NCBI GenBank assembly: GCA_031425655.1
Contig: JANPJS010000062.1
Span: 1-11,634 of the forward strand
DNA length: 11,634 nucleotides
Source: Abditibacteriaceae bacterium
GTDB taxonomy: Bacteria; Armatimonadota; Abditibacteriia; Abditibacteriales; Abditibacteriaceae
Reading direction: 5' to 3'
Shown here: piece after piece, positions 1 through 11,634 of the stretch
Layout of the letters: every line of letters begins with the position of its first letter
Numbering within the stretch: the stretch's first letter is position 1
Made by a program: the position numbers and the translations under genes
Notes under the pieces: model-generated
The model's database searches: none
Told to the model about the DNA's origin: nothing
What the model saw: the letters and a program-made list of their open reading frames with translations, nothing else

Positions 1-19
1 CCATAGGTAGCAACTTGGG

Positions 20-171
20 TTAAGTTAAGCGATTGCGAAACGTAGCTTGCCCTCCCTTCCTGCCCGCTTGTGGGCAGGAAGGGAGGGCAAGACGGCGGCA
101 AAGCCGCCGTCAACCCCCACCTAACCTCCCCCAAAGAGGGAGGAACTATGCTTCGGAACGCCTTAACTTAA
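20..171. mobile_element. MITE-like composite palindromic element with imperfect terminal inverted repeats and three internal hairpins
   Basis: TTAAGTTAAG (20-29) is the exact reverse complement of CTTAACTTAA (162-171), and the match extends imperfectly to about 26 nt (20-45 vs 146-171). Inside are a perfect 20-bp stem (46-65/72-91), a 9-bp stem (91-99/103-111) and CCTCCC/GGGAGG (125-130/138-143). No transposase is in the window, so mobility is inferred. Confidence 0.6.
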
Positions 172-199
172 TGCCGTTGGGCGTTAGCCCCGCTTGGAA

Positions 200-241
200 A
201 GACTTAGGCAAGAAGTCTATTCTCCCGGCCTGTGCTATAAA
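200..241 (+). promoter_or_regulatory. Putative extended -10 promoter for the LexA-family gene with an upstream palindromic candidate operator
   Basis: TG-C-TATAAA at 233-241 lies 8 nt before the ATG at 250, with no Shine-Dalgarno. An AGACTT-N7-AAGTCT inverted repeat sits at 200-218, over the expected -35 region. Confidence 0.45.
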
Positions 242-249
242 TAAAAGTA

Positions 250-879
250 ATGAGAGATTTAAGTAAAAGGCAGCGCGAAGTCTTGCGGCAGATCGGCCAT
301 GTCTGGCAAAGCGGCGCGTTTCCGGTTGTGCGAGAATTGGCCGAAGCGATGGGATTGGCTGGCGAATCAAGCCTGACACCGACGCTGCATCGCCTGCAAA
401 TCATGGGTTTGCTGGAAATTCAGGGTGGCGTGCGCGGCAAGCCGCGTGTGATTACGCTTACGGCGCAGGGCAAAGCAGCGTGCGGTTTGGGCCTGCCCAT
501 TTTGGGCAGCATTCCCGCCGGGCCGTTGCGCGAAACGCTGGAAACCGCCGACGAACACGCCGACAACACTTCCGAATTATTGCCGTCGCGGCCCGGCGAT
601 TTTCTCTTGCGTGTGCAGGGCGATTCGATGATCGGCGACGGAATTTTGCCCGGCGATTTAGTGTTGCTGCGCCCGAATGTGGCGCTGCATCAAGGCGAAA
701 TCGCCGCCGTGCAAGTCGGCGGCGATGCGACACTCAAGCATTTTTATCAGGAGCCGACCTCGTCGCGCATTATTCTCAAAGCCTCAAATCCGAATTACAC
801 CGACATCGAAGTGCCGGCAGAGGACGTTTCCATTGTCGGCGCTTTTCGCGGCCTGATTCGGCCTTCGCAGTGGAATTGA
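250..879 (+). CDS. lexA: LexA-family transcriptional repressor (winged HTH + peptidase S24 autocleavage domain)
   Basis: The N-terminus LSKRQREVL...P-x-x-RELAEAMGL matches the LexA DNA-binding domain. The Ala-Gly cleavage site is in LPILGSIPAG, the catalytic Ser in LRVQGDSM and the catalytic Lys in ATLKHF. 209 aa is a typical length. The recognition helix is divergent, so this may be a paralog. Confidence 0.88.
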   Translation: MRDLSKRQREVLRQIGHVWQSGAFPVVRELAEAMGLAGESSLTPTLHRLQIMGLLEIQGGVRGKPRVITLTAQGKAACGLGLPILGSIPAGPLRETLETADEHADNTSELLPSRPGDFLLRVQGDSMIGDGILPGDLVLLRPNVALHQGEIAAVQVGGDATLKHFYQEPTSSRIILKASNPNYTDIEVPAEDVSIVGAFRGLIRPSQWN

Positions 880-886
880 TTTTCAC

Positions 887-1003
887 CACAAAGACACGAA
901 GGCACAAAGAAAACCACAAAGGCAAATAAGAGATTTCGAGACATTACGCTTCGAGAATTCTTAAATATCTTTGTGGTTTTCTTTGTGCCTTCGTGTCTTT
1001 GTG
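887..1003. repeat. Perfect 35-bp inverted repeat with 47-nt spacer between convergent genes; possible bidirectional terminator or small non-autonomous element
   Basis: CACAAAGACACGAAGGCACAAAGAAAACCACAAAG (887-921) is the exact reverse complement of 969-1003. The arms are built from CACRAAG units. Confidence 0.9.
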
Positions 1004-1010
1004 TTTAAGG

Positions 1011-1493
1011 TTATTCTTCGCTAATCGTGACGCTGGTGATTTTGTCGCCTTGGCGAATGGCGTTCACTACGTCCTGACCGCTGCTCACTTTGCCGAAAAC
1101 TGTGTGCTTGCCATCGAGATGCGGTGTTTCGACGTGCGTGATGAAAAACTGGCTGCCGTTGGTGTTTGGGCCGGCGTTGGCCATCGAAAGCGTGCCGACG
1201 CCGTGGCGGTTGGGGTTGCCTCTGGTTTCGTCGCCGAAGCGATAGCCGGGGCCTCCGGCGCCGGTTCCGGTCGGGTCGCCGCCTTGAATCATAAAGTCAG
1301 GAATCACGCGATGAAACGTCACGCCGTCGTAGAAGCCGTCTCGCGCTAAAAACACAAAGTTGTTAACCGTGTTCGGTGCGGCGTCCGCGAACAAATCGCA
1401 GACAATGGTGCCACGCGACGTTTCAATGGTCGCGCTGAATTTTTTGCCGGGGTCAATCGTCATCGGCGGAGCCGATTTATACTGTTTAGCCAT
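1011..1493 (-). CDS. Cyclophilin-type peptidyl-prolyl cis-trans isomerase
   Basis: Diagnostic motifs [51 protein letters not shown] and [21 protein letters not shown] (complement of 1502-1506) lies upstream of the ATG. Confidence 0.97.
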
Positions 1494-1530
1494 ATAGTTT
1501 TCCTCCGTTGGAATGGTCGCTTAGTAAATC

Positions 1531-2097
1531 ATGCACCGCGATTCGCTGCTTGCCCTACTCGATTCCCACACGCCATTTGACGACACGGAAATGCAAATGC
1601 TCGACCGTTTTCGAGGCTTCGTTGCCTCGCAGCCACAGTGTTTCGAGCGGTCGCTGCTCGCAGGGCACGTTACGGGTTCGGCGTGGATTTTGGATGCCAA
1701 TAGCGCGCAAGTTTTGCTGCTGCACCATCGAAAACTCAACCGCTGGCTGCAACCCGGCGGGCATTGCGACGGCGACTCGGACGTGCTGCGCGTTGCGCTG
1801 CGGGAAGCGCGCGAAGAAACGGGTATAGAGCGATTGGCGCCGGTTTCTTCGCAGATTTTCGATGTGGATATTCATTGGATTCCACAACGCGGCGCCGTGC
1901 CCGGCCACTATCATTACGACGCGCGTTTTCTGCTGCGCGCCGCACAGGGCGAAGTCTTGCGCCACAATCACGAAAGCAAAGGCGCGCTGTGGATGCCGCT
2001 GGACGACGCGGCCAAATTAGGCGAGGCTTCGCTGCGGCGCATGGCGATCAAGGCAGGGTCATTCAGTTCTTGTGCGGTGCGATATGGCCCCGATTAA
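1531..2097 (+). CDS. NUDIX hydrolase
   Basis: Nudix box GGHCDGDSDVLRVALREAREETGI, preceded by GHVTGSAWI...LLHHRKLNRWLQP and followed by FDVDIHWIP...HYHYDARF. Substrate cannot be determined from sequence. Confidence 0.93.
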   Translation: MHRDSLLALLDSHTPFDDTEMQMLDRFRGFVASQPQCFERSLLAGHVTGSAWILDANSAQVLLLHHRKLNRWLQPGGHCDGDSDVLRVALREAREETGIERLAPVSSQIFDVDIHWIPQRGAVPGHYHYDARFLLRAAQGEVLRHNHESKGALWMPLDDAAKLGEASLRRMAIKAGSFSSCAVRYGPD

Positions 2098-2219
2098 AAT
2101 CGGGGTCTCTGGTTACGAAGTCCCCTGCCCAGAGGGCACCCAGCGCGGACTTTCCCTGCTGGCTTCGTCCAGCCGACGAAGGTCGGCTTGGTAGTGGTAG
2201 ACCCCGATTTTAATCGGGG
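2088..2219. repeat. Inverted pair of REP-like palindromes (BIME-like) with internal hairpins
   Basis: CCCCGATTAAAATCGGGGTCT (2088-2108) and GTAGACCCCGATTTTAATCGGGG (2197-2219) are inverted copies. Internal stems are AAGTCC/GGACTT (2118-2123/2147-2152) and AGCCGAC/GTCGGCT (2171-2188). A third copy is at 11596-11618. Confidence 0.85.
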
Positions 2220-2246
2220 GTCAGGCCTGCATTCAACGCGCTTCAC

Positions 2247-2276
2247 TTGCCATTGTTGCCTTCCTCGTGCTAAATT
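2247..2276 (+). promoter_or_regulatory. Putative sigma70-type promoter for the cyclase-receptor operon
   Basis: TTGCCA (2247-2252), an 18-nt spacer ending in TGC, then TAAATT (2271-2276), about 50 nt before the ATG at 2326. Consensus match only. Confidence 0.35.
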
Positions 2277-2325
2277 GAGACATCTTTAACAATAGTGTCC
2301 ACAGCGTTTTCTGCCGGTTCGCGCG

Positions 2326-4320
2326 ATGAACAGCTTCAAGACCCTCCGGCGTTTTCTCAACCGTCAGCGGTGGCTGCCTTATTTGCTGCTCGCCTGTTTA
2401 ATGACGGCATGCGCTCAGGGATTGCAAGCCGCGCACTGGCGTTGGGCCGATTTCATAGATACGCTGGCTCTTGACGAATGCTTTGAACTGCGCGGCCCAT
2501 TGCCTCCCGCCGTCGCCACCGCCTTGCCCGAAACAAAAGATTTTTATCTGATCGCGTTGACACACGACGTGCCCCGTCCGCATATCGCAAAATTAGTCAG
2601 GCTGTTAAGCAAGGCCAAAGTCGTCGCGCTTGATCTTATGTTCGTCAATCATGCGGACGAGTTGATTGCCTCGGAAGAGCATTTGTATCGCAAGGAACTG
2701 CTGCAATGGAAAGCCGATACGGACACTTTGACTGAGGCTTTTAAAGACGCCAAAAACGTCGTCGTCGGCACTTGGCCGGAAACCCGGCGCATTCCAATTC
2801 CCGGCGCGGTCGGAAAAACCAAAACTGACATTATCTGGCAGCAGCCGGCTCCGGCGTTGTGGAACGCGGCGCGGTTTCGGGCGCATTTGCGCGTCGCGGT
2901 GTCGCCTCAAGACGGCATCGTGCGGCGCGTCAGCGTGTTCGAGAACACGCCGACCTCGCTCGACGCGCCGGCGCAACGCACTCCGAGCCTCAGTCTCGCA
3001 GTTGCGGCGGGCGCTCTTGGACTTTCAGCGCGCGACGTGGACAAACTGCAAATCAACGACGGATGGCTCAAACTCGGCTCGCGCCGCCATTACGTCGGGC
3101 CGGACGGCTTGATGACCATTCACTATTTGGGCAAACGCGATTGCTTCGATAATAACGAGGTTCGCTATCACTACAACGTCGCTCTCGACAATTACACGCC
3201 GGACGATTTCGCGGGCGGCATCGTGTTCGTAGGCCGCACCGACTTCAAATCGAAGGACGACATAACCACGCCTTACGGCGACATGAGCGGCATCATGGTT
3301 CACATGAACGCCGTCGCCACGCTGCTCAGTGGCTCTGGGCCGCCGATTCCGTTGCCTCCGTGGCAAACCATGCTCATAGCTCTGGTGTGCAGCGTGATCC
3401 TCATTTTTCCTTTGCTGCGCCTGCCGCTCTGGGGCAGCCTCGCCGCGGCGGCGGCCTTGTGCGCGCTGGTGTTTTTGGCGTGCGCCACGTTGTTCATCAA
3501 GCGCCACAGCTACTTTCCGTTCAGCGTGCCGGTGCTGGCCGTGTTTCTCACTTATAACTGCGTTGCGCTTTATGAATACAGCCGCGCCCGCGCTATGTTA
3601 GGCCGCTTTGTCGGACAGGATTTGGCGAGCGCGCTGCTCCATCCGATGCGCGATCTCAGTCTCGGCGGGCGCACCGAGGTCGCAACGGCGCTTTTCTGCG
3701 ATTTGCGCCGTTTCAGCGCCGCGACGGAAAGACTTTCGCCCGAAGCCGTCGAGCCGCTTTTGAACGCTTACACCAACGCCGTCTCGGAAACTGCGCTGCG
3801 ACACGGGGGGCGTGTCATTGATTATTTCGGCGACGGGGTTTTCGTGCTGTTCCGCAAGAATCCAGCGGGCGCAGACCACGCGCTTCAAGCCGCGCTCGCC
3901 GCGCTGGAAGCCGAAAAAGCAACGCGGGTGCTACTCGCCGAGTGGAGCGCGCGAACCGGTGTGGCGATGCATATCAGCGTCGGCATCCACACCGGCTCGA
4001 TGCACATCGGCGTCGTCGGCTCGGAGGAACACATGAAACTCGGCGCGGTCGGCGATGCCGTCAACGTGACTTCCCGCGTTCAAGGCCTGACCGCGCGCTG
4101 CGGTTTTTCGATTCTCGTCACCAGAGAATGTTATGATTTGATTGCCGGGCGAATTCCCTTTACTCCGTGTGGGTTTTTCGCGGTCAAAGGGCGCGATCAG
4201 GAAGTCGAGGTTTTTGGCGCCGGCGATAAGCAGGAAATTCCCACGGTTGACGTTCCGCTCCAAAGCCCGATGCTTTTAGACGCCGCCACAGACATCCGTG
4301 CGGAGGCAATCAATTTATGA
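2326..4320 (+). CDS. CHASE2-domain membrane class III adenylate/guanylate cyclase
   Basis: N-terminal hydrophobic segment, then CHASE2 motifs (PRPHIAKLV, KVVALDLMF, DGIVRR, PSLSLA, IVFVG, DDITTPYGDMSGIMVHMNAVATLL), then three hydrophobic helices. The cyclase domain has LFCDLRRF (D459), YFGDG (D503), VGIHTG, GDAVNVTSRVQ (N580, R584) and VKGR. Confidence 0.93.
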   Translation: MNSFKTLRRFLNRQRWLPYLLLACLMTACAQGLQAAHWRWADFIDTLALDECFELRGPLPPAVATALPETKDFYLIALTHDVPRPHIAKLVRLLSKAKVVALDLMFVNHADELIASEEHLYRKELLQWKADTDTLTEAFKDAKNVVVGTWPETRRIPIPGAVGKTKTDIIWQQPAPALWNAARFRAHLRVAVSPQDGIVRRVSVFENTPTSLDAPAQRTPSLSLAVAAGALGLSARDVDKLQINDGWLKLGSRRHYVGPDGLMTIHYLGKRDCFDNNEVRYHYNVALDNYTPDDFAGGIVFVGRTDFKSKDDITTPYGDMSGIMVHMNAVATLLSGSGPPIPLPPWQTMLIALVCSVILIFPLLRLPLWGSLAAAAALCALVFLACATLFIKRHSYFPFSVPVLAVFLTYNCVALYEYSRARAMLGRFVGQDLASALLHPMRDLSLGGRTEVATALFCDLRRFSAATERLSPEAVEPLLNAYTNAVSETALRHGGRVIDYFGDGVFVLFRKNPAGADHALQAALAALEAEKATRVLLAEWSARTGVAMHISVGIHTGSMHIGVVGSEEHMKLGAVGDAVNVTSRVQGLTARCGFSILVTRECYDLIAGRIPFTPCGFFAVKGRDQEVEVFGAGDKQEIPTVDVPLQSPMLLDAATDIRAEAINL

Positions 4321-7300
4321 AACCGCTTCGCTTTTCTCATTCCGTTCTGCTTTTTGGCGCTGCCTTCGCACTTTTAACGCCCGCTCTGGCGCGTCCTGTC
4401 GGCAAAATCCGCAGCGTCCAGCCTCTTGTGGAAGCGCGGCGCGGCGCGGCGCCGTGGCAGCCGGTAAAAGACCGCTTTTCGATGGAAGCGGGCCAGGTCA
4501 TTCGCTCCGGGCCGAAGGGCAAAGCCACACTGACTTTTAACGACGGCACCGAAGTGGTGATGAATTCCAAAGCGCAGGTGGCAATCGAGGGCGAAGGTAA
4601 CGCCACACAGCCTTTGGCGTTGCGCGTAGTCGGGTCGCTGTCCATGATTTTCGTGCGTGCCAAAGGCCCAATGGAAATCCGCACCGCTGCGGGCGTCGCT
4701 GCCGTGACCGGCACCGAATATATCATTTCTCTGCTCGATGACAACACCACGCAGCTCACCGTCGTTGAAGGCGGCGTGCGCCTTTTCAATGCTCAGGGTT
4801 CAGTTTTGGTCGCGGCCAATCAGCAAAGCACCGCCAAAGTCGGAGAAAAGCCCAGCACGCCCGTGGCTGTGGACACTTCGGGCCTGATGCAATGGACATT
4901 CGACGTGGCCGGCCTTCCCGTCGAATTTGAAACACCTTTGACTGCTGGCAGCCCCGGCATGAGGGCGCTCGCAGCCGGCGACTTCGCCGCAGCCGACACC
5001 GAATTAACCGAAGCCGCGCGCTTGGCGCCCGCCGACGCCGCCATTTTAACGGCACTGGGCACGGCGCGGCGCCAACGCGGCGATGCCAACGGCGCGATTA
5101 CTGCGTTTCAAGAAGCCATCCGTTTGGCGCCTGCGAACGATGCGCCGCGCCTCGGTTTAGCTCTCTCGGAACTGGCCAGAAACGACATCGGCACCGCGCG
5201 CGAGGCTTTGCAAAACGCGCCCGACACCGCTTTGATTCACGCGGCGCGCGGCTTGGTGGCCTTGCGCGCCAACGACACCACGACGGCCACGCAAGCACTG
5301 GAAACCGCCATTCAACGCGAACCCAACACTTTTCAAGCGCACGCGCTGCTGGCGTTGACGCGTCTTTCGCAAAACCAGAACGCGCAGGCCATGATGGCAG
5401 GGCGGCGAGCCGTCGAAATCGCGCCGCAATCGGCGCAGGCACAGGCTTCTCTGGCGCTGGCGCTATTCTACAGCGGCCAAACCTCAGAGGCTGTCCAAGC
5501 CGCCACGCGCGCGGTGCGACTCAATCCGAATTCGCCTTTCGCACTGCTGGCTCAGGGCGAAGCGTTGCTGGCCCGGCACGATTCGGACGGCGCCAAACGC
5601 GCGTTCATGCAAGCCGAAGCCCTCGCGCCCAATCTGCCGCTGATTCACCTCGATTTGGGCGCGGCCTACACCCGGCTCGACTTGCCGGTGCGCGCTGAAA
5701 AAGCCTTTCGCCGCGCGCTGCAACTGGTGCCGAATTCGGCGGCGGCGCACACCGGATTGGGCGCGGTCTTGCAGGGCACGGGCCGCTGGGATGCAGCGTT
5801 GCCCGAATTGCAGCGCGCTCTCGAATTAGAGCCGGATAACGCTGTTGCGCGCGGTAATCTGGCCGCGTATTACATCGAAATGGGCGACTTTTCCAAAGCC
5901 GAAGCTGGGCTGACCGCGAAATTCGCCGACGATCCGGCCAACGGCCTGCTTTACATTCGTCTTTCGGAAGCCAGTTTGTTCAAGCAGCGCCTTTTCAAGG
6001 CGCAGGAATATGCGCTCAAAGCCGTTCGCTTGCTGCCAGGCTCGGCACAGGCGCATTATCAGTTGGGCCGCGTTTACCGCGAACTCGACCGCATCGTGCA
6101 AGCGGAGCAGGCATTTCGGCAAGCCGTGATTCTCGATAACCAATTCGCCGCCGCGCGTTTCGCGCTCGGATTGGCGCAGGAAGCGGCCCAATCCAGCACC
6201 AATCTCAACCGCAGTGCCATCGCATCGCAGCAAAGCGGGCCGCGACAGGCGTTGAACATTCAGAATCTGCAAACGCCCGGCGCGCAAGAGCGCATTCAGG
6301 CCGCGATTCAAGACCCGTCCGTCTTACGCAGCGCTTCGCGCTCGTTCGGCGACACGCAAATCGAAGGCAGCTTAGGTGAAGGCGGCGTCAATAGTTTCGA
6401 CCTGTCGCATCTGCGCGCCATCAACAACCGGCGCGGCGCGTTCGGCGTCACTTTGGGCCGTTTTCACACCGACGGCGTGCGCGCCGGAGCCGATTTGACT
6501 CAGGAAAAAGCCGGCGTAAATTGGGGCAGCAAACAGCAGGATAGCGCGTCGGGTTTCTTCGCTCTGGCGCAGTTCGAGCGCAATAGATTCGGTGATAACA
6601 CCGATCCCACGCCATTGCCCCCTGATGTCGTCTTCCGCCACAACAAACAGTTGCCGCTGGCGTTAGTTGGCTTCAACCGACAAACCGCTGAGCGCCAGCG
6701 AACGCGCGGCCTTTTGCAGTTCGACAGCCCTAAGCAAGACAGCACCACAATTACAGGCAATTTCCTCAACACTAAAGGCCGCAGTGTTCATGGAGAAGTG
6801 CGTCACGACTTGTTGATTGGCGAAAAACACTCTCTCAGCGCCGGCCTGTCGCTGGGAAATCGTCGCTTTGACTTAGACACATTCTTCAAACAACCGCCCG
6901 GTCTACCGTTCCCCGACTTCCAAAGCACAGGGAGCCAGCGGGTGCAAACTACGCAGATTTACATCCGCGACGAGGCCCGGCTGACGCCAAAGCTCACCGC
7001 GATGGCCGAAATCAAAGTCGAACGGCTGGGAAACCGCAACTCCAGCCTGATCACCTCGCCGCCGGGCTTTCCTCCGAGATCGAGCGATGCGACGCAAACG
7101 GTTGGACTGCCGAATTTCGTGGCAACCTATCAATTGGCTCCGGCCAGCACTGTGCGTCTGAGAGCGCGCGGGTTGTTCGGCACAGTTGAAGATTTCTCGC
7201 TGCTGGCACCGACAGATGTGTTTCTTTTTGGGCTTGATGGCGTCCCAGATTTGGCGATAGGCGCTCGTGGACGCAGCTACGAGGCCGAGTTCAGCCATAC

Positions 7301-7832
7301 CTTTGGCAACGCCTCGTTTTTGAGACTTGGCGCTTTTCAGCAAAATCTGAATGTCGCCAGCGGCACTTCCGAGACATTGACGGACGTTCAATTTCGTGCT
7401 TTGCGTGTCCGCTACGAGGGAGTGTTGAGCAACTCCACAACATTCTTTGTCAACACTGATTTCAACGATGCCAAAGGAACTATTGATTTTACGGATTTCG
7501 GATTTGGAATTGATACCAACTACCGCCTGACGCGGGTGCCGAAGTTCGCCGCTGAAATTGGAGTTCAATATCTCGCGCCGTCCGGCTGGTTCGCCCGCCC
7601 GTCGTTCGCCTACGCCGGCTCTCGCTTGCAGCCATTTGTGGGCACACCGCGCGACCGTCTGGCAGGCTTTGGTTTGGTGAATTTTCAAGTCGGCAAGCGG
7701 TCGGGGTTGCGCTCGACATTGTTTGTAGAAGTCACTAACCTGTTCAACAAGAGTTACTTGGGCAACGCCGGCTTTTTAGGCGAAGTCAAGCCGGGACGCC
7801 AATTTCGCTTTGGCGCCGCGCGGCGCTTCTGA
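4317..7832 (+). CDS. Outer-membrane receptor-like protein: signal peptide, FecR domain, long TPR array, C-terminal TonB-receptor-like beta-barrel (NsrA-like architecture)
   Basis: Sec signal peptide ending ALA (aa 1-25). FecR motifs IRSGPKGKATLTFNDGT, AVTGTEY and LTVVEGGVRL. Many ~34-aa repeats (A-x-x-L-x-P...A...LG) over about aa 215-625. Amphipathic beta strands follow, with VTNLFNKSY near the end and a terminal Phe. ATGA overlap with the cyclase stop and a GGAGG RBS at 4302-4306. Confidence 0.88.
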   Translation: MKPLRFSHSVLLFGAAFALLTPALARPVGKIRSVQPLVEARRGAAPWQPVKDRFSMEAGQVIRSGPKGKATLTFNDGTEVVMNSKAQVAIEGEGNATQPLALRVVGSLSMIFVRAKGPMEIRTAAGVAAVTGTEYIISLLDDNTTQLTVVEGGVRLFNAQGSVLVAANQQSTAKVGEKPSTPVAVDTSGLMQWTFDVAGLPVEFETPLTAGSPGMRALAAGDFAAADTELTEAARLAPADAAILTALGTARRQRGDANGAITAFQEAIRLAPANDAPRLGLALSELARNDIGTAREALQNAPDTALIHAARGLVALRANDTTTATQALETAIQREPNTFQAHALLALTRLSQNQNAQAMMAGRRAVEIAPQSAQAQASLALALFYSGQTSEAVQAATRAVRLNPNSPFALLAQGEALLARHDSDGAKRAFMQAEALAPNLPLIHLDLGAAYTRLDLPVRAEKAFRRALQLVPNSAAAHTGLGAVLQGTGRWDAALPELQRALELEPDNAVARGNLAAYYIEMGDFSKAEAGLTAKFADDPANGLLYIRLSEASLFKQRLFKAQEYALKAVRLLPGSAQAHYQLGRVYRELDRIVQAEQAFRQAVILDNQFAAARFALGLAQEAAQSSTNLNRSAIASQQSGPRQALNIQNLQTPGAQERIQAAIQDPSVLRSASRSFGDTQIEGSLGEGGVNSFDLSHLRAINNRRGAFGVTLGRFHTDGVRAGADLTQEKAGVNWGSKQQDSASGFFALAQFERNRFGDNTDPTPLPPDVVFRHNKQLPLALVGFNRQTAERQRTRGLLQFDSPKQDSTTITGNFLNTKGRSVHGEVRHDLLIGEKHSLSAGLSLGNRRFDLDTFFKQPPGLPFPDFQSTGSQRVQTTQIYIRDEARLTPKLTAMAEIKVERLGNRNSSLITSPPGFPPRSSDATQTVGLPNFVATYQLAPASTVRLRARGLFGTVEDFSLLAPTDVFLFGLDGVPDLAIGARGRSYEAEFSHTFGNASFLRLGAFQQNLNVASGTSETLTDVQFRALRVRYEGVLSNSTTFFVNTDFNDAKGTIDFTDFGFGIDTNYRLTRVPKFAAEIGVQYLAPSGWFARPSFAYAGSRLQPFVGTPRDRLAGFGLVNFQVGKRSGLRSTLFVEVTNLFNKSYLGNAGFLGEVKPGRQFRFGAARRF

Positions 7833-7862
7833 AGTCGTAAATCGCGCATTTGCGACATTTAA

Positions 7863-8107
7863 GACTTAACTTACGCGGTAGGATCATGGTAAGCAGTGTG
7901 AAGAGCGGCTTCGCCGCTCGTGAAACCCCCAACCCCCTTGGTAAGGGGGCTATGTTATGACGCTGTTGAAAAAGAATAACGTAATTGGAGCGAAGAAGCT
8001 TCGTAGTTTAGCCCCCTTACCAAGGGGGTTGGGGGTTTCACGAGCGACGAAGTCGCTCTTCGCAGCGCCTACCATAATCTATTGCGTAAGGTGAGGACTT
8101 AACTTAC
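7863..8107. mobile_element. Long imperfect inverted repeat (~88-bp arms, 56-nt spacer) bounded by a 12-bp direct repeat; MITE-like
   Basis: Arms are 7864-7952 and 8009-8096, with the inner ~38 bp perfectly complementary. GACTTAACTTAC occurs at 7863-7874 and 8096-8107. Each arm has its own hairpins (GAGCGGC-TTC-GCCGCTC; CCCCCTT-GGT-AAGGGGG). Confidence 0.7.
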
Positions 8108-8110
8108 CCA

Positions 8111-8147
8111 TGCGGAAATTCCGCAAAATCAAGACGGTAAAAAGGAG
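8111..8147 (+). promoter_or_regulatory. 7-1-7 palindrome (candidate operator) and ribosome-binding site of the 237-aa ORF
   Basis: TGCGGAA-A-TTCCGCA at 8111-8125. AAGGAG at 8142-8147, 6 nt before the ATG at 8154. Confidence 0.45.
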
Positions 8148-8153
8148 ACAGTC

Positions 8154-8867
8154 ATGCCGAAAATCGAAGGGAACATCAAGGGCGCTATAGGCGCGGGCGA
8201 CGAGGTCATCGTCAGCTTGCGTGAAACGCCGGAGGGCGAGGACATTGCCTCAGCCATCCTCAGTGGGCCGGGTTCGTTTTCACTGGAAGCACCGGGCAAC
8301 GGCAAGTATTTCGTCTGCGCCGACGAGGCCATTGACGAGTGGGCATTCGCCGAAAACTCCATTGCTATAGACGCTACAAACGGCGGCACACAGAGCGTCA
8401 CTTTTGAGGCCGTTCAGTTGATCCCGGCGCATACGGTCGTGAATGACGAAGTTGATCGGCAGTTCGTGATTCATCTTCTGGAAGCCTGTCTGCAAAACGC
8501 CGATAAAATGATGGACGAGCGGGGCGTGCAGGAAGGCCGCCGCTTCATCCGCAATACGATTATGGAGGCACTCAGGAAGGACGCGGACGCGCCCGACGGC
8601 CCGCAAGCGCAGGATATGCAGGGCATCGCTCCTCAGCAACAGCAACAGTGGCGCGACACAGGCGAGTTCGCTGAAGTCACACTGGCAGACGAAAAAGTGC
8701 AGCCACTGGACGAATGGATGCTGCTGCCGACCGGCGAGCGTTTCGTCCGTCCGCTGTTCATGATTCTCTGCACCGTGTGCTATAACCGCTACAATACGCC
8801 GGGCACAATGTATTACAAGAACGCAACGGCGCTTAACACCTGCCTTTACAGCCCGCCTTGCACATAG
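8154..8867 (+). CDS. Hypothetical protein: acidic beta-rich N-terminus, helical middle, C-terminal four-Cys tail
   Basis: Strong RBS, protein-like composition, occupies the gap between known genes and is followed by a terminator hairpin. No family recognised. Confidence 0.8.
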   Translation: MPKIEGNIKGAIGAGDEVIVSLRETPEGEDIASAILSGPGSFSLEAPGNGKYFVCADEAIDEWAFAENSIAIDATNGGTQSVTFEAVQLIPAHTVVNDEVDRQFVIHLLEACLQNADKMMDERGVQEGRRFIRNTIMEALRKDADAPDGPQAQDMQGIAPQQQQQWRDTGEFAEVTLADEKVQPLDEWMLLPTGERFVRPLFMILCTVCYNRYNTPGTMYYKNATALNTCLYSPPCT

Positions 8868-8889
8868 TCCGCAACAGAGAACAAACGAA

Positions 8890-8929
8890 AACGCGGCCCT
8901 TTCCACGAAGGAAAGGGCCGCGTTGTTTT
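8890..8929. terminator. Intrinsic terminator, probably bidirectional, between convergent genes
   Basis: Perfect 15-bp stem AACGCGGCCCTTTCC (8890-8904) / GGAAAGGGCCGCGTT (8910-8924) with a 5-nt loop. T-rich on the right and A-rich on the left. Confidence 0.8.
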
Positions 8930-8950
8930 GTGTGCCGGAGCGTTTGGGAT

Positions 8951-10099
8951 TTACCACTCGGCGACGGAGCCATCTTCGTTGCGCCAGACTGGATTGCGCC
9001 AGTCGTGGCCGATTTTGGCGGCTTCACGCACTTTTTCTTCGTTGATTTCGATGCCCAGTCCCGGCGCCATCAGGCGCTGGACGAAGCCGTTTTCGTAGTG
9101 AAAAATCGTCGGATCGGCTAAATAATCCAGCACATCACTGCCCTGATTATAGTGAATTCCCAAACTTTGCTCTTGAATAAACGCATTCGGCGTGCAGAAA
9201 TCCACTTGCAGCGAGGCCGCGAGAGTAATCGGGCCAAGAGGACAATGCGGCGCGACCGCTACGTCGTAGGCTTCGGCCATCGCGGCGATTTTGCGAAGCT
9301 CCCAGATGCCGCCGCAATGACTCACGTCCGGCTGCAAAATATCCACGCCGCCGCCTTGCAAAATCGCCTTGAACGCCGCGCGTCCGAACATTCGTTCGCC
9401 GGTCGCCATCGGCGTGGCGGTATGCCGTGAAATCTCGATCAGTGCTTCGTTGTTTTCGGGCAATACGGCTTCTTCGATGAACATTGGCTGAAACTGCTCC
9501 AATTCTTTGACGAGCATTTTCGCCGTGCCGCGATGCACACGCCCGTGAAAATCAATGCCGATGCCGACATTCGAGCCGACGGCATCGCGCACCGCGCCAA
9601 TGCGCGCCACGGCTTCTTCGATTTTGGCGGGCGTGTCAATCCAATCCATGTTGGCGGTGCCGTTCATCTTGACGGCGGTGTAGCCGGCGGCGACTTTTTC
9701 CTGCGCTTGCGCGGCGCATTCGCCGGGCGCATCGCCGCCAATCCAAGCATAAACGCGCATTTTGTCGCGCACCGGGCCGCCCATTAAATCGTAAATCGGA
9801 ACACCGAGCGCCTTGCCTTTGATGTCCCAGAGCGCCTGTTCGATGCCGGAAATCGCGCTCATCAAAACCGGGCCGCCGCGATAAAATCCGCCGCGATAAA
9901 GCACCTGATACAGGTCTTCGATGTGTCCGGCGGGCTTGCCGATGAGGTATTCGGAAAGTTCTCGCACACAGGCGGCGACGGTGTCGGCGCGCCCTTCGAC
10001 AATAGGCTCGCCCCAGCCGCAAATGCCGTCGTCGGTCGTGATTTTCAAAAACAACCAGCGCGGCGGGACTTTAAACAGTTCGAGTTGTGAAATTTTCAT
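8951..10099 (-). CDS. dgoD: D-galactonate dehydratase (mandelate racemase/enolase superfamily)
   Basis: MKI...FKVPPRWLFLKITTDDGICGWGEP, YRGGFYRGGPVLMSAISGIEQALWDIKGK, AVKMNG, IDFHGRVH, FIEE, ATGER, APHCPLGPI, IQEQSLGIHYN and the C-terminal WRNPVWR..DGSVAEW. The ATG at 10099 gives 382 aa and is preferred over the TTG at 10108. Confidence 0.96.
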   Translation of the reverse strand: MKISQLELFKVPPRWLFLKITTDDGICGWGEPIVEGRADTVAACVRELSEYLIGKPAGHIEDLYQVLYRGGFYRGGPVLMSAISGIEQALWDIKGKALGVPIYDLMGGPVRDKMRVYAWIGGDAPGECAAQAQEKVAAGYTAVKMNGTANMDWIDTPAKIEEAVARIGAVRDAVGSNVGIGIDFHGRVHRGTAKMLVKELEQFQPMFIEEAVLPENNEALIEISRHTATPMATGERMFGRAAFKAILQGGGVDILQPDVSHCGGIWELRKIAAMAEAYDVAVAPHCPLGPITLAASLQVDFCTPNAFIQEQSLGIHYNQGSDVLDYLADPTIFHYENGFVQRLMAPGLGIEINEEKVREAAKIGHDWRNPVWRNEDGSVAEW

Positions 10100-10160
10100 G
10101 GGATTCAAGAGCTTCGTGGTCCTTCAGAATTCTTAGAGATAGTCTGAAAAGTGGCGGAGA

Positions 10161-10291
10161 CTCCCTTCCCCTTTGCCGTATCAAGGGGAAGGGTTGGCGG
10201 GCGCCCTCTGGGCAGGGGGTTTGGCTTTTCCAGAACCCCACCCTAACCCTCCCTCCTGCCCAGAGGGCACCCGACGGCAAGGGGAGGGGAC
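10161..10291. repeat. Composite inverted pair of C-rich/G-rich hairpin repeats, each carrying an embedded 18-nt motif
   Basis: Perfect 11-bp stem CCCTTCCCCTT/AAGGGGAAGGG (10163-10173/10183-10193). The right half AACCCCACCCTAACCCTCCC...ACGGCAAGGGGAGGGGA is an imperfect inverted copy and resembles 112-143. The 18-mer is at 10199-10216 (reverse) and 10255-10272. Confidence 0.75.
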
Positions 10292-10305
10292 TTCTCAGAC
10301 AAATC

Positions 10306-10839
10306 TTACGGGGATGCCGCAGGCTTTTGTGTCGTCACGCCGCTGATGCGCCAAGCGCCATTTTCCAATTCGAGATGAAAAACCGCGTCAACGGTGACGC
10401 CGTCGGTGCCCGTGACGCGGACGCCGGCGTTCGACTTTTGATGCCACGGATAAGTGTTGACATCGGTGTTGACAAAGGTGAATTTCAGGGTCTTCAAGCC
10501 CATGAAGCGCGACTGCGAAGCCTGCATCACGGCGCGCAACGAACCCGGTTCGGCGAATCGGCGGCGCAATCGGTGGTTGAAAAATGCGGTCGCGGCAGCA
10601 TAATCGCCGCGTTTTATAGCTGCCAAATGACCTCGCACCGTCGTGGCAACCGCGAGGCGCAGCGAGGAATGCGCTGCGTCGAAGTCAATGAGGAACGGTG
10701 CAAGTTTGGCCTGCTCGGCAGCTTGCGCGGCGCGCATCCGTGCGCGATAGCCTTCCAATTGCCAGAGCAAGCCGCCCGCGCTGATGAGAACTATGCCCAG
10801 CGCCGGCGCGATTTTTCCAAAAAACAATTGTTGATTCAT
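10306..10839 (-). CDS. Membrane-anchored DUF4864-like (NTF2-like fold) protein, paralog 2
   Basis: Probable start MNQQLFFGK at ATG 10839 (177 aa), which avoids the overlap with the upstream paralog. N-terminal hydrophobic helix, then HLAAIKRGDYAAA...LRRRF and GTDG..VDAVFHLELENGAWRISGV, which align with the neighbouring gene. Confidence 0.72.
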   Translation of the reverse strand: MNQQLFFGKIAPALGIVLISAGGLLWQLEGYRARMRAAQAAEQAKLAPFLIDFDAAHSSLRLAVATTVRGHLAAIKRGDYAAATAFFNHRLRRRFAEPGSLRAVMQASQSRFMGLKTLKFTFVNTDVNTYPWHQKSNAGVRVTGTDGVTVDAVFHLELENGAWRISGVTTQKPAASP

Positions 10840-10889
10840 GTGTTTCAGTTGTCGCCAGTCTACCGCAGAGCGCGGTTTTTTTGCGCGCC

Positions 10890-11462
10890 CTACGCGGTGA
10901 CTTGACCTTTGGATTGCGGGGCGCGCGGCGGAGTTGCATGACCGCCGGACACACCCGAAACGCGCCACAAACCGTCTTCTAAAATCATCTGGTAATCGGC
11001 GCTGGCCGCTTTGCCGTCGCTGCCGATGAGATTGACCGAAACCTTCGCTAACTTGCCTGTCTCATCCGCTTGAACCGGGCTGAACTTCGCGCTTTTATAA
11101 TGGGCGAATTGCGGATAGCCATTTTGAATCATCGCGCGAAAATCGTTAGTCGAAGCAAAATTGCGGCGTAGTCGCGCGCTTTGATACTTCGTCGCGGTTT
11201 GGTAATCGTCGCGTTTGAAGGCGTCAAGTTGCGCCGTAATCGAAGCGACGACAGCTTTGACTTCGGTCGCAGTCGCTTTGCGCCATTGAATCGGCGGCGC
11301 GGGCGCATCCTCCCGATTCATCAGCGCCTGACTGCGCCGATACTCCAGCACTTGCCAGCCGAGCGCACCTAAGCTGACAATCAGCACCAGAAAAACCAGC
11401 ACGAATTTGCGCGCATCAAGCGAACGTGGCGGCTTGGGCGAAGAGGGAGAAGAGGTTTCCAT
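10890..11462 (-). CDS. Membrane-anchored DUF4864-like (NTF2-like fold) protein, paralog 1
   Basis: TM helix FVLVFLVLIVSLGALGW. The segments ITAQLDAFKRDDYQTA, NFASTNDFRAMIQNGYPQF and GSDG...ADYQMILEDGLWRVSGV match the DUF4864 pattern as I recall it. Confidence 0.8.
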   Translation of the reverse strand: METSSPSSPKPPRSLDARKFVLVFLVLIVSLGALGWQVLEYRRSQALMNREDAPAPPIQWRKATATEVKAVVASITAQLDAFKRDDYQTATKYQSARLRRNFASTNDFRAMIQNGYPQFAHYKSAKFSPVQADETGKLAKVSVNLIGSDGKAASADYQMILEDGLWRVSGVSGGHATPPRAPQSKGQVTA

Positions 11463-11521
11463 GCTCGCAGTTTACGTTTTCGGGCATGGAAATACCCGGC
11501 AGGGAAGCCTTACGGCTCAGC

Positions 11522-11539
11522 CCTGCCTAAAGGGCGCCC
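11522..11539 (+). repeat. Degenerate copy of the 18-nt CCTGCCCAGAGGGCRCCC motif
   Basis: CCTGCCTAAAGGGCGCCC differs at two positions from the reverse complement of 10199-10216. Confidence 0.6.
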
Positions 11540-11595
11540 GTCTGGACGCACCTTGACTCAGAGTGCCGAACCGGGGCAAACGCATTGCTCTGTCA

Positions 11596-11634
11596 CCCCG
11601 ATTGAAATCGGGGTCTACGCATACAAAGTCCGCC
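11596..11634. repeat. Third REP-like palindrome, probably the left half of another inverted pair cut by the window edge
   Basis: CCCCGATTGAAATCGGGGTCTAC reads GTAG-A-CCCCGATTTCAATCGGGG on the minus strand. It aligns with 2088-2123 through AAGTCC. Confidence 0.8.

Follow-up and report, generated by a model that had tools for sequence, protein, structure and literature searches.

Known short repeats and the present unit

The small dispersed repeats (SDRs) of the Nostocaceae, reportedly described by Elhai et al. in 2008 (Genome Res 18:1484), and SDR5 in particular, are the closest known kind to the element presented here, a hairpin unit of 20 nt recurring in an 11,634 nt stretch of Abditibacteriaceae DNA (assembly GCA_031425655.1, contig JANPJS010000062.1, positions 1 to 11,634, forward strand; hereafter the window). 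The comparison was made through the descriptions given in papers that cite the original work. In these, SDRs are dispersed sequences of about 20 nt, apparently mobile, with no gene, terminal repeats or target duplication, which insert precisely into other repeats by an unexplained mechanism, SDR5 going between bases 3 and 4 of HIP1 (PMC4390886, PMC5861425, PMC2884548, PMC3116915). The unit falls within a range of about 20–27 nt, is likewise dispersed with varied flanks and possesses empty-site alleles (338 copies in one genome, 94 site classes for its T-form, empty alleles for 207 of 327 copies). A preliminary description of the window, made from the sequence alone, had placed the motif outside any named element; to judge from these accounts, a named kind does exist. 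The targets of the unit share only their first C and not HIP1, five bases are removed, and the first base of the unit is variable, which distinguishes it from SDR5 as described there. In addition, the same accounts report SDRs only in Nostocaceae, whereas the unit is found in Abditibacteriaceae and Chloroflexota.

Other short mobile sequences are more distant. Derivatives of the insertion sequences (IS) IS200/IS605 insert 3' of a fixed tetra- or pentanucleotide with no loss of target, whereas the unit has no conserved left flank and its sites lose five nucleotides. Unlike miniature inverted-repeat transposable elements (MITEs) and derivatives of classical IS, the unit does not end in inverted repeats, and its target shows this loss with no duplication. 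The unit resembles repetitive extragenic palindromic sequences (REPs), and the REPINs linked to RAYT transposases, in being a short G+C-rich extragenic palindrome, in the size range of 20–40 nt, with hundreds of copies; according to the portions of the sources that treat them, some REP families lie inside other palindromes and occasional copies are intragenic and in frame (PMC3733652, PMC3116915). However, the unit carries no GTAG or CGTC tag at its end, as the tag is defined in the source, and has a stem of only 5 bp (PMC3733652); no Y1 transposase gene flanked by units was present among 138 unit loci. REP-like repeats are hosts of the unit, not its family. Target-primed integration of non-LTR retrotransposons gives, as far as the source covers it, a comparable precise 3' junction, a ragged 5' end with an untemplated base, and target loss (PMC2881922), but the unit is bacterial, 20 nt long and without an open reading frame (ORF), there is no reverse transcriptase (RT) match in the genome of the window, and an RNA intermediate is one inferred option only. 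The Ssn (SsnA) GIY-YIG/NTS-SRM system shares with it a small hairpin repeat common to several phyla, and the Ssn proteins were shown, in the part of the source concerned, to cut and not to insert (PMC11893778). There, SRMs flank the nuclease gene (PMC11893778), whereas no gene family recurs beside the unit, GIY-YIG genes not having been searched directly. A search of the published literature, covering few subscription papers, returned no description of the unit or of a five-base swap. By the features tested, the unit is real and a variant of a known but mechanistically unexplained kind, and it is not SDR5, a tagged REP, a MITE or an IS605 derivative.

Sequence, boundaries and copy number of the unit

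Self-comparison of the window showed that positions 2124-2141 and 10255-10272 are identical and that 11522-11539 matches them at 83% identity, while 10199-10216 is the reverse complement of the same 18-mer with one change. The preliminary description had correctly located these four copies, placed them all between genes (confirmed by gene calls in the window) and recognized a small hairpin in the core; the fold has a 5-bp stem and a 3-nt loop on either strand. Its 18-nt motif is indeed recurrent but was drawn too short, as the unit measures 20 nt, counting a variable base ahead of the motif and a conserved G after it. Per-position base counts gave sharp borders, with 19 conserved positions (two of them A/G) preceded by the variable base. 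The consensus of the 19–20-nt unit is N-CC[T]GCCCARAGGGCRCCCG. The 3' end is fixed, and the 5' tail varies by lineage (N-CCT, N-CC, N-CT or N-C).

In the Abditibacteriaceae genome to which the window belongs (G000, a fragmented metagenome assembly of 5.98 Mb), the 18-mer had 72 exact matches, 134 with one mismatch, 91 with two and 35 with three. Unit copies, defined at ≤2 mismatches, numbered 338, so that the genome-wide count proposed earlier showed a motif that is not rare. A fourth-order Markov simulation of 3 Mb yielded no match at this threshold, and practically none is expected by chance. No Rfam family and no tRNA were found in the window. A CRISPR origin was rejected, the repeat of the two CRISPR-like arrays in G000 being unrelated to the unit.

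Sister units of 22–24 nt, with a longer stem, a 4-nt loop and the same ends as the 20-nt unit, were also seen, and they fill the same five-base sites. About 23 copies exist in G000, on contigs C228, C304, C231, C73, C306 and others.

Twenty bases replace five, starting at a C

For the 327 of the 338 copies with enough flank, the repeat fraction of G000 was searched for the same flanks lacking the unit. An empty-site allele was found for 207 of them, and in 160 of these 207 exactly five host bases were replaced (142 of 182 T-form copies, 6 C-form 20-mers and 12 C-form 19-mers). In 16 further copies, the partner allele was the same site filled by the 24-nt sister unit. The alignment of host repeats with and without the unit thus bears out the proposal of a very small unit replacing parts of unrelated repeats, the insertion being an exact 5-nt replacement in those 160 cases. 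Among the cleanest cases with the modal gap (n = 148), 69 had an empty allele identical over all 28 flanking bases, indicating that the sites were filled recently compared with the divergence of the hosts.

The first replaced base was C in 68 of 69 distinct contexts, which are not fully independent (C frequency of 0.99, compared to 0.36 at neighbouring positions). The remaining four replaced bases have no consensus and the left flank is not conserved. When longer segments standing for five bases between repeated flanks were sought without bias, the unit ranked first and the 24-nt sister second; below them, the output was otherwise tandem-unit noise. Four of six cross-genome empty alleles fit the 5-nt, C-first rule. 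By our reading against typical sequences, the rule would also fit a tRNA-Arg gene in G000, two tRNA genes in G013 and an IS200 transposase gene in G012. At orthologous sites in five loci from G001-G003, no unit was found, and no host-only orthologous empty site was among them.

The variable first base

Counting each site class once, the first base was T in 49 cases, C in 34, A in 22 and G in 3; the distribution in 70 contexts from other genomes was T39, C14, A12 and G5. The base showed no association with the unit's two internal A/G variants (p = 0.94) and differed among copies in 13 of 46 multi-copy site classes. It varies as an untemplated base would, the other strand reading A>G>T>C at the 3' end of the unit, which is the pattern expected of untemplated addition. 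Alternatively, such a pattern is expected of a base placed opposite a non-coding position.

Hosts and targets

According to our own gene calls for G000 (4741 genes, 88% coding), 309 of the 338 copies are intergenic. Of these, 233 touch sequence repeated at least four times, compared to 28% of intergenic DNA, and on inspection the other 76 lie mostly in recognisable diverged repeats. The hosts, labelled by our reading, include heptamer arrays, tandem-arm inverted repeats and several palindromic families with no relation to each other, and the unit often occupies more than one position within them; an SRM-like repeat is, again by our reading, among the commonest. The 244 T-form copies correspond to the 94 site classes mentioned above. 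Same-strand pairs of copies within 60 nt were observed 11 times, against about 3 expected at random. Targeting could explain the excess in repeats, as could mere survival with passive amplification, two causes that are not separable here.

Outside repeats, the unit was found in a tRNA-Arg(TCG) gene of a tRNA array in G000, in two tRNA genes of G013, in an IS200 transposase gene of G012, which it splits, and in long ORFs of phage contigs, where the additional 15 nt keep the frame. Arrays of spare, atypical tRNA genes were noticed in G000 (C61:85-845, C217 and C317). In one G000 array tRNA, the unit lies at the end of the D-stem, and it occupies the same position in a G013 tRNA (L138).

The preliminary description had suggested the scar of a nuclease or transposase that targets hairpins. 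This is not borne out, as in 60 folded sites the target C was unpaired in 26, in the 5' arm in 18 and in the 3' arm in 16. It is no more single-stranded than other Cs (0.43 vs 0.48), with no preference for loop or arm, and the hosts also include heptamer arrays and the tRNA, transposase and phage genes just listed. No replication-strand bias was detected on the 89 contigs with a clear skew (61 vs 55 copies; 53 vs 48 for unpaired ones), nor any transcription-strand bias (85 vs 76).

An IS110 element inside the unit

In G000, the loop of the unit is split by one IS at ten left and eight right junctions. G016 contains a complete element with these ends within a unit copy (L004:1560-2860); it encodes an IS110-family transposase. 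This element has subterminal inverted repeats, and its end sequences are similar in two genera. A check for the motif at the ends of IS200/IS605, RAYT, IS110 or other nuclease genes had been proposed; among the unit loci it does not mark such ends, and IS110 instead inserts into the unit. Three G000 units (on C119, C244 and C302) have two extra loop bases, possibly the footprint of IS110 excision.

Distribution

The strict unit pattern was present in 15 of 24 genomes of the same family and in none of 16 sampled relatives outside it. The core with one mismatch was present in 24 of 26 family genomes, at 1 to 195 copies, the lowest counts being weak as controls gave 0–1. A scan of species genomes returned at least 87 stretches with the unit, mainly from Abditibacteriaceae and Chloroflexota among the matches listed. 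Five Chloroflexota genomes contained 63, 54, 63, 4 and 28 exact cores, and a match occurred in 22 of 151 genomes of their class. The unpublished genomes G060 and G084, both non-carriers, enter only this class count and the PF05635 and Ku tallies given below. Given the empty alleles, the 338 copies and the many independently assembled genomes, the unit is neither an invariant part of one longer repeat, nor rare elsewhere, nor a library artefact.

A model of movement and its alternatives

From the directly observed 20-for-5 swap, with C first, a precise 3' junction, a lineage-dependent 5' length and a variable first base, we tentatively propose that the unit is a non-autonomous mobile hairpin, swapped in at a C by nick-directed, target-primed copy-in with target-site deletion. 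A nuclease would make two nicks, one in the top strand immediately 5' of the C and one in the bottom strand at a distance of five bases. Synthesis would then be primed by the bottom-strand 3' end on a short free template of the unit, either RNA or single-stranded DNA, beginning at its CCCG end; after the addition of one untemplated base (A>G>T>C on the bottom strand), it would jump to the left flank. Both flaps would be removed, and the five bases thereby lost. Copies would survive where 15 additional nt are harmless, as in repeats, spare tRNAs and protein loops, and would then multiply passively with the host repeats. The nicks, the free template and the polymerase are components that we infer. 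Copy-in explains why the 3' junction is fixed and the 5' tail ragged, why the extra base favours purines on the copied strand, and why target bases disappear. Its geometry is the one described for target-primed integration of non-LTR elements when, as treated in the source, the second nick lies upstream and target bases are deleted; the jump between templates may there be helped by untemplated bases (PMC2881922).

Several observations weigh against copy-in. In G000, the gap had another length in 31 of the 207 comparable copies, most of them lying in C runs or tandem units. The A at first position followed a host C in 17 of 22 cases, so that the first base is not purely random. In G197 (Chloroflexia), of which 2.30 Mb of about 3.5 Mb were analysed, an empty allele was found for 23 of 35 copies; a 5-nt replacement fits 8 of these (3 starting with C, 5 with T), a 6-nt one beginning with T fits 12, and neither length fits the other 3, so the C rule is not universal. 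The G197 copies lie almost exclusively in diverged repeats, at one or two positions of the host, and this pattern may reflect a different rule or old, decayed copies. No enzyme was identified either. RVT_1 gave no match in the incomplete assemblies G000, G001 and G197. In the single-contig genomes G011 and G012, no unit lies closer than 5 kb to the RT genes, which indicates that a standard RT is not the copier, and no nuclease or template locus for the unit was found. It must be considered that multi-copy mobile genes are often lost from such assemblies, as was the IS110 of G000, and these blanks thus do not amount to absence. The RT match of G043 is split. The RT genes of G011 and G012 (L139, L140 and L141; about 490–515 aa, two genera), which we take to be retron-like, lie behind a zinc-finger-like gene and large helical-repeat genes.

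The wider search did not point to the machinery either. When the ORFs of 138 loci were compared with the G000 proteins, no protein was common to more than two loci, and no recurring gene stood beside the unit. Between the G000 copies and 205 copies elsewhere, the longest flank identities were host repeats of the same family, with no autonomous partner. Ku was absent from all 41 genomes searched. The four-helix-bundle family PF05635 (E ≤ 1e-12) occurred in 17 of 21 carriers and 18 of 20 non-carriers, and therefore does not discriminate. One such gene in G197 (C3:112792-113301) is apparently split by an insert of about 200 nt. A cross-phylum comparison of 3272 G000 proteins (≤420 aa) with the 2.30 Mb of G197 gave 701 hits; the best 115 short hits were almost all housekeeping, with no outlier.

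A strand-transfer swap at a damaged or flipped C seems to us doubtful. The target C would be deprived of its base or of its coding ability, a pre-cut, single-stranded unit of 19 nt would replace the four bases that follow it, and replication would put a random, A-biased base opposite the lesion. This would explain most simply the C rule, with its context-free requirement and a variable base exactly at the C, and no RT is needed; SRAP abasic-site proteins were found in four of five carrier genomes, though also in five of 14 control genomes. We know of no enzyme of this kind, and the target Cs are not preferentially unpaired, as seen above. Furthermore, abasic bypass in E. coli, in the results available from the source, yields chiefly A and one-base deletions, while none of C, T and G reaches 1% (PMC4167244), unlike the 45:31:20:3 distribution observed here.

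It is rather unlikely that the unit is a minimal passenger of the REP type, swapped in by an HUH transposase (Y1, RAYT or TnpA-like) after two cuts in a single-stranded target. Insertion by HUH enzymes is not known to remove target bases or to add a variable one. The short G+C stem with its 3-nt loop, the mostly extragenic location and the Y1 transposases of G000, G011 and G012 agree with such a passenger, but no Y1_Tnp match was obtained in the carriers G043 and G197 (incomplete genomes), the copies show no replication-strand bias (61:55), no Y1 gene is flanked by units, and the unit lacks the GTAG or CGTC tag (PMC3733652, for the definition given there).

Still less probable is that the unit does not move on its own, a few old insertions having been shuffled among repeats by recombination or gene conversion and amplified with their hosts. 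Host amplification does inflate the copy number, as the 244 T-form copies in 94 site classes show, and 233 of the 309 intergenic copies touch repeats. Nevertheless, the flanks are unrelated while one junction rule holds across 69 contexts, several positions are hit per host family, and 11 same-strand pairs lie less than 60 nt apart; the units in tRNA, transposase and phage genes, where there is no repeat homology, largely refute this explanation.

A library adaptor or assembly artefact, which the fragmented metagenome assembly and the 61 of 338 copies within 150 nt of contig ends might have suggested, has a negligible probability and is refuted by independent genomes, with lineage-specific variants in 24 of 26 family genomes, single-contig ones included, and an intact IS110 inserted within a copy; a separate Logan assembly, from a run that may be the source sample and hence not independent, reproduces the 2124 copy on a contig spanning 1900-7918 with no differences.

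We give about even weight to the broader claim that the unit reveals an undescribed route of mobility, a swap insertion, in which a hairpin of 19 bases enters at almost any C, five target bases going out and one untemplated base coming in, by a machinery belonging to none of the RT, Y1, Ku and four-helix-bundle families checked. The route would be common to several phyla and strong enough for an RNA-guided IS110 to have been re-aimed at its products.

The four copies in the window and their neighbourhood

The first copy (2123..2142, plus strand), with C as first base and its last base changed from G to A, replaces five host bases within an internal hairpin of its host (2088..2219), a composite palindrome whose inverted ends measure 21 nt and which is located between NUDIX and CHASE2-cyclase genes. 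An empty sister of this host lies at 11596..11634 on the plus strand, cut by the contig end. It aligns to 2088-2123 and then, as the preliminary description had noted, continues with host bases where the 2124 unit starts, position 11631, the target C, aligning with 2123.

The second host (10159..10295), between genes of an enolase-superfamily protein and a DUF4864 protein, is an inverted pair of hairpin repeats with C-rich tails, carrying two units at different positions. One unit (10198..10217, minus strand; first base C, G variant at the second purine position) lies in one arm. The other (10254..10273, plus strand; first base T) replaces five host bases at the stem-loop border of the other arm. 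It does interrupt a hairpin, as had been proposed, but the twin at 10163-10193, taken to be intact, has six bases there, and the true empty sister is another subfamily of the host repeat, with a 5-nt gap. G002 has neither the host nor its units at the orthologous junction.

The degenerate fourth copy (11521..11540, plus strand; 83% over the 18-mer) lies upstream of a second DUF4864 gene. Three copies had been assigned to repeats, correctly; the fourth is probably in a low-copy repeat too, since a second copy on contig C101 has similar flanks.

Three more long intergenic palindromic repeats of tandem-arm and composite hairpin types (882-1008, 7882-8079 and 20-171) are without a unit. A gene for a LexA-like repressor (250-879; LexA DNA-binding and S24 domains) adjoins a cyclophilin gene, with synteny in G002 and G003. 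A 237-aa ORF (8154-8867) with a cysteine-containing C-terminus and no Pfam match lies downstream of the CHASE2-cyclase and FecR-TPR genes.

Significance

The question of how repeats shorter than 30 bases move goes back to the description of the SDRs in cyanobacteria. Hundreds of filled and empty pairs now give a precise signature, five bases out, C first, one variable base in, which to our knowledge no transposase leaves. It allows the direct design of a trap assay and a biochemical search for the enzyme. An enzyme swapping a short oligonucleotide into near-arbitrary sites would, if true, be of technical interest. For its hosts, the unit edits tRNAs and adds five-residue loops to proteins. It also makes landing pads for the IS110 element, so that parasitism is organized in three layers: the repeat, the unit and the IS.

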